64,000 bases of DNA, from the IMG/VR virus record IMGVR_UViG_3300036770_005052, positions 1 through 64,000 of that record, one strand, 5' to 3'. Both the position numbers and the translations under genes were made by a program. Below are positions 8,159 through 12,660 of this stretch, one piece after another. The notes beneath the pieces were generated by a model. The model had not been told where the DNA came from. It did no database searches and saw only the letters and a list, made by a program, of their open reading frames with translations. Position 1 is the stretch's first letter, and each line of letters begins with the position of its first letter. The stretch is from a virus.

Positions 8159-8161
8159 CTT

Positions 8162-8235
8162 GTCCGTGTAGCCCAATTGGAAGAGGCACCACCTTGAGGG
8201 GGTGGGTGTTGGAGGTTCGAGTCCTCTCACGGACA
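8162..8235 (+). tRNA. tRNA-Leu(GAG), short variable loop
   Basis: CCACC-TTGAGGG-GGTGG; 5-nt variable loop; A73. Confidence 0.85.
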
Positions 8236-8238
8236 TAT

Positions 8239-8312
8239 GCCCGATTGATGGAATTGGCATACATACTTGCCTTAGAAGCAAGGTTTTACAGGTTCGAATC
8301 CTGTATCGGGCA
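8239..8312 (+). tRNA. tRNA-Leu(TAG), short variable loop
   Basis: CTTGC-CTTAGAA-GCAAG; 5-nt variable loop; A73. Confidence 0.88.
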
Positions 8313-8316
8313 CCTT

Positions 8317-8468: not shown

Positions 8469-8505
8469 TTTAAATCTAAATAGCAACGAGAGGTGTGATA
8501 GGAAA

Positions 8506-8976
8506 ATGGAATTAGTAGAACCACATTCAACTATACTAGTTCTGAATAGTTCTTACGAGCCACTACACTTCACTAATTGGAAACGTGCAATTGGTTTACT
8601 TTTTAAACAGAAAGCAAAACTTATCTCCAAGAGAATTATTCGTTTGGTAAATTATGTGAAACTTCCATTTTCCTATGGGAAATCCAATTACCCAACGAGA
8701 GCACTCATCTATAAACGGGATGATTATGAGTGTCAGTATTGTGGGTCTAAAAATGACCTTACAATTGACCATATAATTCCCCGCTCAAAAGGTGGTCAAG
8801 ATACTTGGGATAATTTAGTTGCTTGTTGCACATCTTGTAATCTTAAAAAAGGAAATAAACTTCTTAAAGATACTAATATGGTCTTAAAAAGTATTCCACA
8901 AGCACCAATTAGTAGAGTGATACTTGATATTCAGAAAACAAAAGTTTCTGAATGGAAGGACTATTTGTTTCAGTAG
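8506..8976 (+). CDS. HNH endonuclease (McrA-like)
   Basis: VLNSSYEPL, RDDYECQYCG, LTIDHIIPRSKGG..W.NLVACC..CN; the longer ORF-track start runs through tRNAs. Confidence 0.88.
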   Translation: MELVEPHSTILVLNSSYEPLHFTNWKRAIGLLFKQKAKLISKRIIRLVNYVKLPFSYGKSNYPTRALIYKRDDYECQYCGSKNDLTIDHIIPRSKGGQDTWDNLVACCTSCNLKKGNKLLKDTNMVLKSIPQAPISRVILDIQKTKVSEWKDYLFQ

Positions 8977-9070
8977 GGGGTTGACAAATTTTTGAAAATA
9001 CCCTAATATATAAAAGACAGAGGTTAAGTCCCTGATATGTCCTTGAGGCATACCACACTTAACCCTTCAT

Positions 9071-9145
9071 CGTGGGGAAGTGTAACGGTTGCACAGAAGT
9101 CTCATAAGCTTCAGGTAGGTGGTTCAACTCCACCCCCCGCCTCCA
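9071..9145 (+). tRNA. tRNA-Met(CAT), initiator-like 1:72 mismatch
   Basis: C1xC72; CT-CAT-AA loop; encoded CCA. Confidence 0.85.
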
Positions 9146-9149
9146 ATTT

Positions 9150-9222
9150 GGGGAATTAGCTCATTTGGTAGAGCACCGCTTTTGCACGGCGGGGGTGAGG
9201 AGTTCGAGTCTCCTATTTTCCA
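9150..9222 (+). tRNA. tRNA-Ala(TGC)
   Basis: G3-U70; TT-TGC-AC loop. Confidence 0.92.
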
Positions 9223-9273
9223 CTGGGGAAGTGATCCTGCGGATTCGTCCAAGAGCTCTCCTTCTCCTTATAT

Positions 9274-9346
9274 TCCACACGACCGAGCAAGCGAACGGGC
9301 CCGTCTGTTAAACGGAGATAGCTAGGGGCAGTACCTAGGTGTGGAG
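9274..9346 (+). tRNA. tRNA-Asn(GTT) with non-canonical D/T loops
   Basis: TCCACAC/GTGTGGA acceptor; CT-GTT-AA; T-arm CTAGG-GGCAGTA-CCTAG. Confidence 0.8.
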
Positions 9347-9394
9347 TTTCTAACCTTTAAAATATTATAAATAATAATAAAGTTGGAGGTTAGA

Positions 9395-9937
9395 GTGTCT
9401 AGTAAAGCAGTAGTTGAATTTCGTCAAAGAAGAAAAAGATGGGCAGTTGAAGCATTTGGTGGTAAGTGTGGTATTTGTGGATATAATAAATGTGTTGAAG
9501 CATTGGATTTTCATCATATTGATCCTACACAAAAAGATTTTACCTTAACAGCATCAGTAGCAAATCGACAAATATTTGTTGAAGAACTTAAAAAGTGTGT
9601 TTGTTTGTGCTCTAATTGCCATCGTGAAGTTCATTCTGGCGTTACACAAATTCCCGATAATATATTAAAATTTGATGAAAGTTTTTCTAATAAACCTGTA
9701 CCAGAAAAACCAAAACATCCTTGTAAAGAGTGTGGAAAACTAACAACAGTTAATCATCTATTTTGCTCAATAAAATGTTCTAATAAAAATAAAGAAGTTG
9801 CCAAGTGGCCAAATAATCAAGAACTACAAAAGTTAGTTGATGAATATGGTTATCGAGGAACTGGTAGAATGTTTGGAGTTAGTGATAATGCGGTTAGAAA
9901 AAGATTGCAGAAACGAGGACTATTGACATCTGTTTGA
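9395..9937 (+). CDS. HNH homing-endonuclease-like protein with Zn finger and C-terminal HTH
   Basis: GGKCGICGY..ALDFHH..CLCSNCHREVH; GTG start after GGAGG; late promoter at 9366. Confidence 0.82.
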   Translation: MSSKAVVEFRQRRKRWAVEAFGGKCGICGYNKCVEALDFHHIDPTQKDFTLTASVANRQIFVEELKKCVCLCSNCHREVHSGVTQIPDNILKFDESFSNKPVPEKPKHPCKECGKLTTVNHLFCSIKCSNKNKEVAKWPNNQELQKLVDEYGYRGTGRMFGVSDNAVRKRLQKRGLLTSV

Positions 9938-9960
9938 GAATATGATAATATATAGATATT

Positions 9961-10080
9961 GGAAGGTCTGGAAATGTCTGGGTCTTCCTTTCTAAATCCT
10001 AACCTTGTTAGGTCGGGGATTTGATCACCCCCGCCAGTTGCAGAAAGTGTCTTCTGCGGGTGTCGGGCACTCGATACCCA
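9961..10080 (+). ncRNA. Multi-hairpin RNA ending in a kissing-loop pair
   Basis: Five hairpins; loops AGUGUC and GGCACU are complementary; promoter TTGACA(9923)..GATAAT upstream. Confidence 0.6.
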
Positions 10081-10083
10081 TTT

Positions 10084-10155
10084 GCCCTTGTAGCTCAGTG
10101 GTAGAGCAACGGTTTTGTAAACCGTTGGTCGCTGGTTCAAATCCAGTCGGGGGCT
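10084..10155 (+). tRNA. tRNA-Thr(TGT)
   Basis: ACGGT-TTTGTAA-ACCGT. Confidence 0.93.
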
Positions 10156-10233
10156 TGACATAATACCCATTATGTCTTATACTTCATATGTCCGTGTGAA
10201 GTGAAGTGCTGGGAGAGTCAAATCTCCCATTTT

Positions 10234-10305
10234 GCGGAGTTAGTTCAGTGGTAGAACGCTATCCTTCCAAGTTAGATGTCGTCGGTTCGAATCCGATACT
10301 CCGCT
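10234..10305 (+). tRNA. tRNA-Gly(TCC)
   Basis: GCGGAGT/ACTCCGC; CT-TCC-AA. Confidence 0.92.
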
Positions 10306-10362
10306 TTCCCCAAAATCATGGGGATACTAAATAATACTCGTAGTTGTAAATCTTAATACAAT

Positions 10363-11247
10363 ATGACTTTTCAAAATATTATTACTGCTAGTGTAGTTGC
10401 TACGACTTCTTTGGTTGCGCCTGCGATGGCGCAAGTCACTAGCGTTAAGCAACTGAGTGATGTTCAACCTACTCAGTGGTCTTATCAAGCAATCACTAAT
10501 TTGGTAGAGCGTTACGGTTGTGTTGCTGGTTATCCTAATGGCACTTTCCGTCCAGGTCAACCTGCAACTCGTGCCGAACTTGCTACTCTGACTAATGCTT
10601 GTCTTGATCGCATTAGTGAGTATCAAAGTGCTGCTGATGCTGCTCTTGCTTCTGCTCTTCGTGCTGAATTTGCCAAAGAACTCGCTGTTACCAATACTCG
10701 CGTGTCCGCTCTCGAAGTTGCCACTGCTCAAAAAGCTCAAGGTGTTGGTAACTATGTTGGTGTTGGCGTTCTTCTCAATCAGCAAGGCACTGCTGGTAAC
10801 GGTTTCAGTGCTCAGCGTACCATCTCCGGTGCTACCGTTCAGGCACGTTATGCCGTGAAGAACTTCACCAATCTGAATGCTGTTTCGGTTCGTCCTTATG
10901 CTAGCTTCGTAGGCACTCCTGCTGGTCAGTTGGGTTCTGGTGGTGGTGCTCTGGTGTCTTATGACTGGAGCATCTCTCGTGCCAAGTCTGGTGCGAGCCG
11001 TGCTAACGTCTACACTGGTGTTGGTTATCAGATCCCCTTCGTAAACAACACTGCTGCTAACTTCCAGTCTGCTGTTGGCAATCGTGGTCAAGTTGTTCTT
11101 GCTCTTGGTGTCGAAGGTCGTATCACTAACTCTCTGGTTGGTTTTGCTGATCTCAAGTTCCCTACCACCAATGCTTCTAATAGCTATGGTGTTACTAACG
11201 GAACTTATTCACCCGTATTCACTACTGGTTTGGGCATTAAGTTCTGA
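10363..11247 (+). CDS. SLH-domain outer membrane protein (cyanobacterial porin-like N-terminus, short beta-barrel)
   Basis: Signal peptide; QVTSVKQLSDVQPTQWSYQA..LVERYGCVAGYP..TRAE; C-terminal Phe. Confidence 0.85.
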   Translation: MTFQNIITASVVATTSLVAPAMAQVTSVKQLSDVQPTQWSYQAITNLVERYGCVAGYPNGTFRPGQPATRAELATLTNACLDRISEYQSAADAALASALRAEFAKELAVTNTRVSALEVATAQKAQGVGNYVGVGVLLNQQGTAGNGFSAQRTISGATVQARYAVKNFTNLNAVSVRPYASFVGTPAGQLGSGGGALVSYDWSISRAKSGASRANVYTGVGYQIPFVNNTAANFQSAVGNRGQVVLALGVEGRITNSLVGFADLKFPTTNASNSYGVTNGTYSPVFTTGLGIKF

Positions 11248-11328
11248 TATTTTAATACGTAGTGTAAATTGGGGGGAGTTGACAACGACTCCCCTTTTTA
11301 GTATAATAGGTATTGAATCAGGAGGTTT

Positions 11329-11487
11329 ATGTCTCTCATTTCTCAAATGGACCGTGAAATGGTCATTGAAGCACTTGAGTATTATATTGATAAATTAAAA
11401 GAAGATAATTGCACTCAAGCATCTATTACGGTGTTTAATACTCTTCTTCGCTGGATTGAACTAGAGCATTTTAAAAATGAAAATTAA
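11329..11487 (+). CDS. Hypothetical protein (52 aa)
   Basis: AGGAGG RBS; MSLISQMDREMVIEALEYY... Confidence 0.7.
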   Translation: MSLISQMDREMVIEALEYYIDKLKEDNCTQASITVFNTLLRWIELEHFKNEN

Positions 11488-11641
11488 TCTCTGGTACTGT
11501 AAAGATATGAATCTTTGGCGTTGGACTCTGATTGATGATCATCGACCAATAGTAAAACAAGAGTCTGGACAGAGAGAAAATCTACGAGATGCCATGAATG
11601 ATGTGGCTAATACAGTAGAATATCTTATGGGTCAGTTTTGA
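11477..11641 (+). CDS. Hypothetical protein (54 aa)
   Basis: MKINLWYCKDMNLWRWTL...; overlaps the upstream stop. Confidence 0.65.
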   Translation: MKINLWYCKDMNLWRWTLIDDHRPIVKQESGQRENLRDAMNDVANTVEYLMGQF

Positions 11642-11649
11642 CTTTTTAT

Positions 11650-11722
11650 GCCCGATGACCCAGCTAGTGAAGGGACCTGCCTTACAAGCAGGCAGCGGTA
11701 GGGGCGGAACCTATATCGGGCA
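11650..11722 (+). tRNA. tRNA-Val(TAC) with non-canonical D/T loops
   Basis: GCCCGAT/ATCGGGC; CCTGC-CTTACAA-GCAGG; T-arm GTAGG-GGCGGAA-CCTAT. Confidence 0.82.
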
Positions 11723-11751: not shown

Positions 11752-12186
11752 ATGGAAAAGTTATATAAATTACTTTCTGATACTCAAGCAACTCTTTTTA
11801 TGTTGTTTCAGAAAACTTGGGTCTATCACTGGAATGTGGTGGGTTCGGAGTTTTATCAGTTTCATAAAGTCTTCGGTAAACAATACGAAGAAATGTTTGA
11901 AGAGATTGATCGGCTCACAGAGCACATGAGATACCTGAAAATTAAACCTGTTAGCACTCTCACAAGAATTACTGAAGTTTCTCACGTTCTCGAAGCAAAT
12001 AACAAGCTTGATGATGTGGGAATGGTAAAAGACTTGATTGCTGATAACGAAACTTTGGTTGGTCTTTTTAAACAAGTTGCCGAAGAAGCAGAATTGCAAA
12101 AATCAAGAGGCACTACAAATCTTGTTGATGATTTGAATGAATCACACGGAAAATTTATCTGGATGTTAAGATCTTTTACTGAATGA
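11752..12186 (+). CDS. dps: Dps family ferritin-like DNA protection protein
   Basis: HWNVVG..F..FH..F..QY......ID.L.E and H.K..WML motifs. Confidence 0.9.
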   Translation: MEKLYKLLSDTQATLFMLFQKTWVYHWNVVGSEFYQFHKVFGKQYEEMFEEIDRLTEHMRYLKIKPVSTLTRITEVSHVLEANNKLDDVGMVKDLIADNETLVGLFKQVAEEAELQKSRGTTNLVDDLNESHGKFIWMLRSFTE

Positions 12187-12450: not shown

Positions 12451-12460
12451 GGACTTTATT

Positions 12461-12547
12461 GGAGAGTCAAACCGATAGGTGACGGTAGCTGTCTTGAAAA
12501 CAGTCGAGGTGTTAAAGCCCTTAGGCGTTCGATTCGCCTACTCTCCG
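12461..12547 (+). tRNA. tRNA-Ser(TGA)
   Basis: GGAGAGT/ACTCTCC; CT-TGA-AA; long variable arm. Confidence 0.92.
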
Positions 12548-12660
12548 TTACAAATATTACAAAATTTTAGATTTTTTTAATCTATATTTGAGTATCAACA
12601 CAAACTTGACAAGTTGAAACTATCGATTAGTATAACTAGTAGTATTCAACTTAAAACCTT

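Follow-up and report, generated by a model that had tools for sequence, protein, structure and literature searches.

Two non-canonical tRNA genes of a T4-like cyanomyophage point to a phage tRNA class with an alternative elbow

The DNA examined here, referred to as the window, comprises positions 1 to 64,000 of the IMG/VR virus record IMGVR_UViG_3300036770_005052, a T4-like cyanomyophage. A tRNA array runs along the + strand between 6.4 and 14.1 kb of the window, and two of its genes, a tRNA-Asn(GUU) and a tRNA-Val(UAC), differ from canonical tRNAs at several positions of the tRNA elbow; they are called the odd tRNAs in what follows. The full record is 119,575 bp long with a G+C content of 35% and an estimated completeness of 52%, and the nearest cultured relative is Synechococcus phage S-SRM01, with approximately 81% identity over short stretches. 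The Rfam scan of the window identified a PhotoRC-II RNA, a group I intron and a glutamine riboswitch, while 21 tRNAs were called by ARAGORN. The positions of the odd genes and of the features around them are given in Table 1.

The two odd genes are each 73 nt long and do not encode the CCA end. A perfect 7-bp acceptor stem is followed by G8 and A9 and then by a D stem of 3 bp, which closes a D-loop of 10 nt with the sequence AGCAAGCGAA in the tRNA-Asn and AGCTAGTGAA in the tRNA-Val. The pattern common to both loops, AGCWAGYGAA, places AG where G18G19 would be expected. The anticodon loops, CUGUUAA and CUUACAA respectively, are textbook loops in which U33 and a purine at position 37 are kept. 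Both genes have G48 and a 5-bp T stem, and the T-loops are GGCAGTA in the tRNA-Asn and GGCGGAA in the tRNA-Val. The discriminator base is G73 in the former and A73 in the latter, each of which fits its synthetase, and the tRNA-Asn has U1-A72 and a single C.A mismatch at 27:43. An earlier sequence-only reading of this DNA had described both tRNAs with G8, the AG D-loop, G48 and these T-loops, and the sequence is as it was described there. The conserved tertiary set is therefore only partly present, with G8, A18, G54, G55 and G58 found and with G19 and C56 kept, and the retention of A14 depends on the register chosen for the D-loop. Minimum free energy prediction with ViennaRNA folds the + strand of both genes as a cloverleaf. 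A reading of the minus strand was rejected, the reverse complements giving z-scores of -0.8 and -1.0 compared with -1.7 and -2.2 for the + strand, together with an implausible layout of the D and T arms.

Neither odd gene was called in the window by ARAGORN or by Rfam at its gathering threshold. With lax filters only, the odd tRNA-Val scored 33.6 bits on RF00005, for which the gathering threshold is 29 bits, and the odd tRNA-Asn gave no tRNA match at E<10 in the same kind of scan. A covariance model, R1, was built from four sequences, namely the two window genes and two homologues. Only the two odd genes in the window exceed 90 bits with R1 and the next best sites are ordinary tRNAs at approximately 33 bits, a gap which indicates a match far beyond chance. 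R1 did not find a third odd tRNA, such as a tRNA-Tyr, in the window, and a tRNA-Tyr(GUA) was not found in the 119.6-kb record.

Table 1. Odd tRNA genes and associated features of the window (positions numbered from the first nucleotide of the window; R1, the four-sequence covariance model)
Feature	Position	Strand	Evidence and context
Non-canonical tRNA-Asn(GUU)	9274..9346	+	Sequence, cloverleaf fold, R1 92.5 bits, family covariation
Non-canonical tRNA-Val(UAC)	11650..11722	+	Sequence, fold, R1 91.7 bits
HNH homing-endonuclease gene	9395..9937	+	PHROG 35854, E=2e-27; 48 nt downstream of odd tRNA-Asn
Second HNH endonuclease	8482-8976		PF01844, E=7e-17; in array between tRNA-Arg(ACG) and tRNA(CAU)
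tRNA(CAU)	9071-9142	+	Rfam 46.4 bits, missed by ARAGORN; first gene of unit holding odd tRNA-Asn
tRNA-Ala	9150-9223		Between tRNA(CAU) and odd tRNA-Asn
Promoter-like site	8981..9009	+	10/12 consensus, pattern match only; upstream of tRNA(CAU), tRNA-Ala, odd tRNA-Asn and HNH gene
Promoter-like site	11279..11307	+	12/12 consensus, pattern match only; upstream of two small open reading frames and odd tRNA-Val

Homologues of the odd genes were identified by scanning IMG/VR with a motif of the D arm. The scan gave at least 118 loci, and the family counts reported here are drawn from the matches listed. Approximately 100 of these loci are genuine, with scores of 60–93 bits on R1. Among the matches listed the anticodons are GUU, UAC, GCA and GAU (Asn, Val, Cys and Ile), and the corresponding discriminators, G73, A73, U73 and A73, are those that each synthetase expects. 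In 57 distinct sequences 99.3% of the stem cells are paired and changes on both sides are seen in 19 of the 21 stem pairs, giving a covariation score of 0.773 compared with 0.18 for shuffles and no more than 0.098 for slid registers. The cloverleaf was recovered independently when RNAalifold was applied to the family alignment. Stem mismatches occur in a few members (L113, L120 and L283). Since the homologues keep the shared substitutions while their stems vary by compensatory changes and their tertiary partners covary, the sequences support a set of substitutions that is selected together and not a product of drift. This is what the sequence-only reading had argued from two genes, and in the homologues, which were scored with a covariance model, the substitutions do co-occur; the U1-A72 pair that it noted in the tRNA-Asn likewise holds across the Asn-class members.

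Copies identical or near-identical to the odd tRNA-Val are present in IMG/VR loci, for example L097 and L103, and blastn revealed further homologues in cultured phages. An Asn-type homologue lies within the tRNA array of Microcystis phage Mwe-JY26, and Val-type homologues were obtained from Synechococcus phages S-N03, MA10, MA01, ME01 and MC09. No cultured relatives of the Ile and Cys loci L087 and L069 were found in the phage collection with megablast or blastn. The GenBank records of Mwe-JY26, S-N03 and MA10 contain no feature at the odd tRNA and ARAGORN finds 0 of 107 class instances, consistent with the earlier expectation that such genes may escape standard annotation. When the D-arm motif was used to scan 596 Gb of bacterial and archaeal genomes from GTDB, two of approximately 120 matches were genuine and the rest arose by chance. 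One of the two is on a 2.6-kb contig and the other shares a stretch of 8 kb with several further alternative-elbow tRNAs, for which reason both are probably phage-derived. The odd tRNA-Asn and tRNA-Val are most likely functional members of a widespread, phage-only class of tRNAs.

The covariation within the family includes the tertiary partners of the elbow. Nucleotides 54:58 are G:G in 32 class members and A:U in 22, and the D-loop W directly before AG pairs with nucleotide 59 in all 55 members (A:U in 45 and U:A in 10). Both window genes contain all three alternative-elbow features, these being AG with G55-C56, the 54:58 combination and the pairing of W with nucleotide 59. The relation between the D-loop and nucleotide 55 was also counted in 856 unique ARAGORN-called tRNAs from the phage loci, where GG occurred with U55 in 791 tRNAs and with G55 in 4, and AG occurred with G55 in 34 and with U55 in 16 (p=6e-44). 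This association makes A18.G55 a general alternative to G18.Psi55 (Psi, pseudouridine), present in tRNAs with many anticodons. The sequence-only reading had also proposed that such an elbow does without 4-thiouridine at position 8 (s4U8), T54 and Psi55, which agrees with the chemistry in that G8, G54 or A54, and G55 are not convertible to 4-thiouridine, 5-methyluridine (m5U) or pseudouridine.

A second scan, for which the anticodon loop and the T-loop served as anchors, placed the window type as a single branch within a wider phage tRNA set. The other tRNAs of this set combine U8 with a normal D stem of 4 bp; their D-loops are, for example, AAAAGTA and ACTAGCA and their T-loops AGCGTTA and GGCAGTA, and CCA is often encoded. 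The package of substitutions originally proposed for the two tRNAs is a genuine co-occurring set, but the class is far wider than two genes and of that package only A18/G55 is general. Two loci are dense arrays in which nearly every tRNA has a D-loop without GG. In L267 (IMGVR_UViG_3300031524_000008) G55 is found in 12 of 13 tRNAs, and in L176, a 2.1-kb contig of a metagenome-assembled genome (DASXTY010000449.1), in 7 of 7, the latter also having T-loops of the TGAGA type (A56). Both look like whole-array conversion to alternative elbows, and the presence of G55 throughout an array makes the alternative elbow look compatible with general decoding. A sub-branch comprising several tRNAs of L271, L290, L178 and L010 has A8 A9 and an unambiguous D stem of 4 bp, with a D-loop of the form T...G (TAAAGTG), in which A8.U14 with G21 is apparently a swapped U8.A14 pair. 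All 11 tRNAs seen elsewhere in the sampled bacterial loci are canonical.

The numbering of the D-loop requires some caution, as the assignment of G14 and C15:G48 rests on nucleotide counting in an arm with a 3-bp stem and a loop bounded by A...A. In the alternative register these positions become A14 and G15, which would make G8.A14 and G15.G48 the pairs of the core. The G14/C15 register agrees with a reversed Levitt pair between the invariant C and G48 and is also favored by the covariation of nucleotide 8 with the second loop nucleotide (G/G in 53, U/A in 1). The A14/G15 register is favored by canonical-elbow tRNA-Met genes with the same D-arm layout, in which U8 is combined with an A at the first position of the loop. 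It is likewise favored by variants in which one additional 5' nucleotide is paired with nucleotide 26 (C-G twice and U-A once). The sequence data give conflicting hints on the D-loop register, and while the G8 and G48 of the original core numbering are present, its G14 and C15:G48 are register-dependent, with A14/G15 equally possible.

The arrangement of the arrays indicates that the odd genes take the place of standard ones. In cyanomyophages the array order is Arg(UCU)-Asn-Thr-Gly-Val-Ser-Pro, and the slots for Asn and Val are occupied by a standard gene or by an odd one. A standard tRNA-Asn is found in 4 of 55 odd-Asn loci compared with 12 of 25 odd-Val loci (p=7e-5, non-redundant), and a standard tRNA-Val(UAC) in 0 of 25 odd-Val loci compared with 31 of 55 odd-Asn loci (p=2e-7). 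Similarly, none of 8 odd-Ile loci has a standard tRNA-Ile(GAU). The 119.6-kb record encodes 23 standard tRNAs, none of them for Asn or Val, while Asn and Val account for 6.6 and 5.9% of its codons. Mwe-JY26 also has 23 standard tRNAs with no standard tRNA-Asn, the odd tRNA-Asn being located between those for Phe and Met, and S-N03 has one Rfam-detectable tRNA in addition to its odd tRNA-Val. Simple conversion in situ was rejected because alignments of odd and standard Asn or Val genes of the same slot differ in the acceptor and T stems; the anticodon stems of odd and standard tRNA-Val are similar in the alignment. At two loci (L030 6829-7000 and L076 1280-1430) an odd and a standard tRNA-Asn stand in tandem, 4-8 nt apart. 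At L002 3800-4000 and L003 3800-4000 the stretch of approximately 200 nt that separates the standard tRNA-Asn from the odd tRNA-Val is near-identical in S-N03 and MA10; it is non-coding in both annotations, is rich in hairpins and may be another structured RNA.

Several of the odd genes are adjacent to genes for HNH endonucleases. In at least 25 loci the odd tRNA-Asn has, 47-49 nt downstream, an orthologue (78-84% identity) of the HNH gene that follows it in the window, and the two genes form a linked cassette with a spacing conserved across genomes. No HNH gene adjoins the odd tRNA-Val of the window, but relatives have one: homologues of the HNH N-terminus abut the odd tRNA-Val in L019, L035 and L097, and an annotated HNH gene directly follows it in MA10. 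Orthologues of the second HNH endonuclease of the window are found approximately 300 nt upstream of the odd tRNA-Asn in L095 and L113. A precedent for tRNA genes spread in this way is known from phage T4, in which SegB drives preferential inheritance of the tRNA gene region. The odd genes could then be explained at the DNA level, as cargo of HNH cassettes that move into the Asn and Val slots of related phages, or as alleles of these cassettes that are immune to cleavage, with the odd D- and T-loop DNA being kept through linkage or through resistance to the predicted endonuclease. The alternation of standard and odd genes within the same slot among related arrays would be expected in that case. 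We consider this explanation rather unlikely, as a homologue of the same HNH gene also follows the standard tRNA-Asn in L079 and L105, many odd genes, such as those of L065 and L119, have no adjacent HNH gene, and the class includes whole arrays without any sign of HNH linkage. These observations suggest that homing can account for the replacement of slots and not for constraints on the RNA, and the tertiary covariation at the RNA level is left unexplained by it.

Compared with the canonical tRNA-Asn(GUU) and tRNA-Val(UAC) (RF00005) the odd class has the same length (73 nt, CCA not included), the same acceptor stem of 7 bp and T arm of 5 bp with a loop of 7 nt, and the same anticodon loop, also of 7 nt, in which U33 and A37 are present; the G19:C56 and G53:C61 pairs, the discriminators and the array slot are shared as well. 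It differs in having G8 instead of U8, AG instead of G18G19, G55 instead of U55, G54/G58 or A54/U58 instead of U54/A58, and a D stem of 3 bp that closes a 10-nt loop. G18, G19, T54, Psi55, C56 and A58 are the textbook invariants of tRNA, and the invariant elbow nucleotides are read by RNase P and the CCA-adding enzyme as well as by the ribosome and by modification enzymes. A precedent for their loss is tRNA-Pyl, especially that of Desulfitobacterium hafniense, which has G8 and is without G18G19 and T-Psi-C (review PMC7609411). This tRNA is functional with a non-canonical contact of its D-loop with its T-loop, so another solution for the elbow can work in translation. Its D-loop is tiny, however, its anticodon stem has 6 bp and its variable loop 3 nt, and it has a dedicated synthetase, whereas the arms of the phage class are of standard length and its charging presumably relies on ordinary host synthetases.

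Other known tRNAs share single features with the odd class. A54.A58 is described in eukaryotic initiator tRNA and cytosolic tRNA-Ala (PMC7912444; PMC7566577), in which a purine at position 54 is tolerated and the fold of the T-loop is kept; these tRNAs retain U55 or Psi55 and G18G19, whereas the phage class combines G:G or A:U at 54:58 with A18.G55. Phage tRNAs are also reported to evade anticodon nucleases, as in the cases of T5 tRNAs against PARIS and retron PtuAB and of mycobacteriophage tRNAs (Azam et al., 2024, cited in PMC13462974). Like the odd tRNAs these are phage-encoded replacements of host tRNAs, with changes proposed or shown to avoid tRNA-targeting immunity, but the changes in the known cases affect the anticodon stem-loop, while the odd class has a changed elbow and a canonical anticodon loop. 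No description of an A18/G55 or G54/G58 class of phage tRNAs was found in the open full-text literature, including reviews on non-canonical tRNAs and on the conservation of the T-loop.

Family membership, the covariation of structure and tertiary contacts, the identity elements, slot replacement and mutual exclusion together suggest that the two odd loci are functional elongator tRNA-Asn(GUU) and tRNA-Val(UAC) genes of a phage-specific alternative-elbow class, a reading that we consider likely. In the predicted elbow A18.G55 would replace G18.Psi55 with G19:C56 kept, G54.G58 (A54.U58 in relatives) would replace T54.A58, and the D-loop nucleotide before A18 would form a Watson-Crick pair with nucleotide 59. 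G8 stands in for U8 beside a D arm with a 3-bp stem and a 10-nt loop, and G48 is invariant. The odd tRNAs would be co-transcribed with their neighbors, excised by RNase P and 3' processing, and provided with CCA by the host enzyme. Charging would be carried out by the host asparaginyl-tRNA synthetase (or a non-discriminating aspartyl-tRNA synthetase with GatCAB) and valyl-tRNA synthetase, which would recognize the kept anticodon and discriminator, and the charged tRNAs would decode the AAU/AAC and GUN codons that are abundant in this phage of low G+C content (35%). The standard Asn and Val genes have been replaced at the same positions of the array by odd genes that were probably carried in by the flanking HNH homing endonucleases.

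Several points weigh against this assignment. The public runs listed for the locus are DNA metagenomes only, with no RNA run among them. RNase P, the CCA-adding enzyme and EF-Tu, like the ribosome, make contacts with the elbow or the T arm and would have to tolerate the changes found here (A18.G55 and G54.G58). An odd and a standard tRNA-Asn coexist in 4 loci and 2 of those odd copies have a stem mismatch, indicating that redundancy and decay do occur. The record is only approximately 52% complete, so a standard Asn or Val gene could be present in the missing half, and the covariation counts are uncorrected for phylogeny.

Two further explanations would deny the odd tRNAs a role in translation. 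The rejection of the odd genes by gene finders and the stem mismatches of the few members named above would be consistent with decaying tRNA pseudogenes, but an origin by decay is effectively refuted by more than 100 copies in which the stems are 99% paired, compensatory changes are abundant and the loop motifs do not vary, and we give it almost no weight. Loss of the universal elbow nucleotides is typical of non-proteinogenic tRNAs, such as the staphylococcal tRNA-Gly used for peptidoglycan, cloverleaf tRNAs in which GG and T-Psi-C are replaced and which coexist with proteinogenic isoacceptors and avoid EF-Tu. The odd tRNAs might by the same token be mimics acting outside translation, either as decoys for tRNA-binding host factors or as aminoacyl donors in a non-ribosomal reaction. 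This is very unlikely, as the odd genes replace the only isoacceptor where the staphylococcal tRNAs are found alongside theirs, and they keep U33, the purine at 37, the exact anticodon loops and the discriminators; without them, Asn or Val would be missing from genomes whose tRNA sets are nearly complete.

A role in counter-defence, as the sequence-only reading had suggested, would be compatible with functional elongator tRNAs and concerns the reason for the altered elbow, not the nature of the genes. CbCash, a type III CRISPR-associated Schlafen nuclease, cuts tRNAs mainly at the T-loop UUC, and single mutations of U54 or U55 abolish its cleavage; the authors of that study leave open whether phage tRNAs are targets (PMC13462974). 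CdiA-CT(E479) cuts the T-loop between T and Psi (PMC9086364). With U54, U55 and G18 replaced, the odd tRNAs could be poor substrates for such T-loop nucleases while the matching codons were still decoded, and the near-complete conversion of some phage arrays to G55 fits a general pressure on the T-loop. The fit is less good for the window phage, in which only 2 of approximately 25 tRNAs are odd and protection would cover just two amino acids. We regard counter-defence as possible but doubtful. A combined proposal is put forward just as tentatively, in which the class would represent a second, fully functional elbow architecture without s4U8, m5U54 and Psi55, defined by A18.G55, a reversed or purine-purine 54:58 and sometimes G8 or the A8/U14 swap, that would serve against T-loop tRNases and be spread between phages by single-gene homing cassettes or whole-array takeover.

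Further observations were made on the genes of the array. Within the window an SLH-domain porin-like protein (10363-11247) and a ferritin/Dps-like protein (11752-12186) are encoded among the tRNA genes, as in S-SRM01. The tRNA-Leu(GAG) at 8161-8236 and the tRNA-Leu(UAG) at 8239-8314 are class I tRNAs of 76 nt with a 5-nt variable loop, while bacterial tRNA-Leu usually belongs to class II. This tRNA-Leu(UAG) has its entire acceptor stem and A73 in common with the odd tRNA-Val, and its anticodon is one base away from UAC. A class II tRNA-Ser(UGA) at 12460-12548 is labeled tRNA-Sec by Rfam at the threshold (47.1 vs. 47 bits), which is a mislabel because the anticodon is UGA and not UCA. Outside the window, an 88-nt tRNA at 93286-93373 of the record was called Ile(UAU); its D arm is tiny and its variable arm long.

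A large natural set of tRNAs with correlated swaps provides a covariation map of an alternative elbow, and it means that the tRNA complements of phages are systematically under-counted. As the odd tRNA-Asn and tRNA-Val are missed by gene finders, the apparent lack of Asn and Val tRNAs in the window phage is an artefact of annotation. Members of the class are available in cultured phages, namely Microcystis phage Mwe-JY26 and Synechococcus phages S-N03 and MA10, and the class as a whole constitutes a set of candidate escape substrates for the newly described T-loop nucleases of bacterial immunity.

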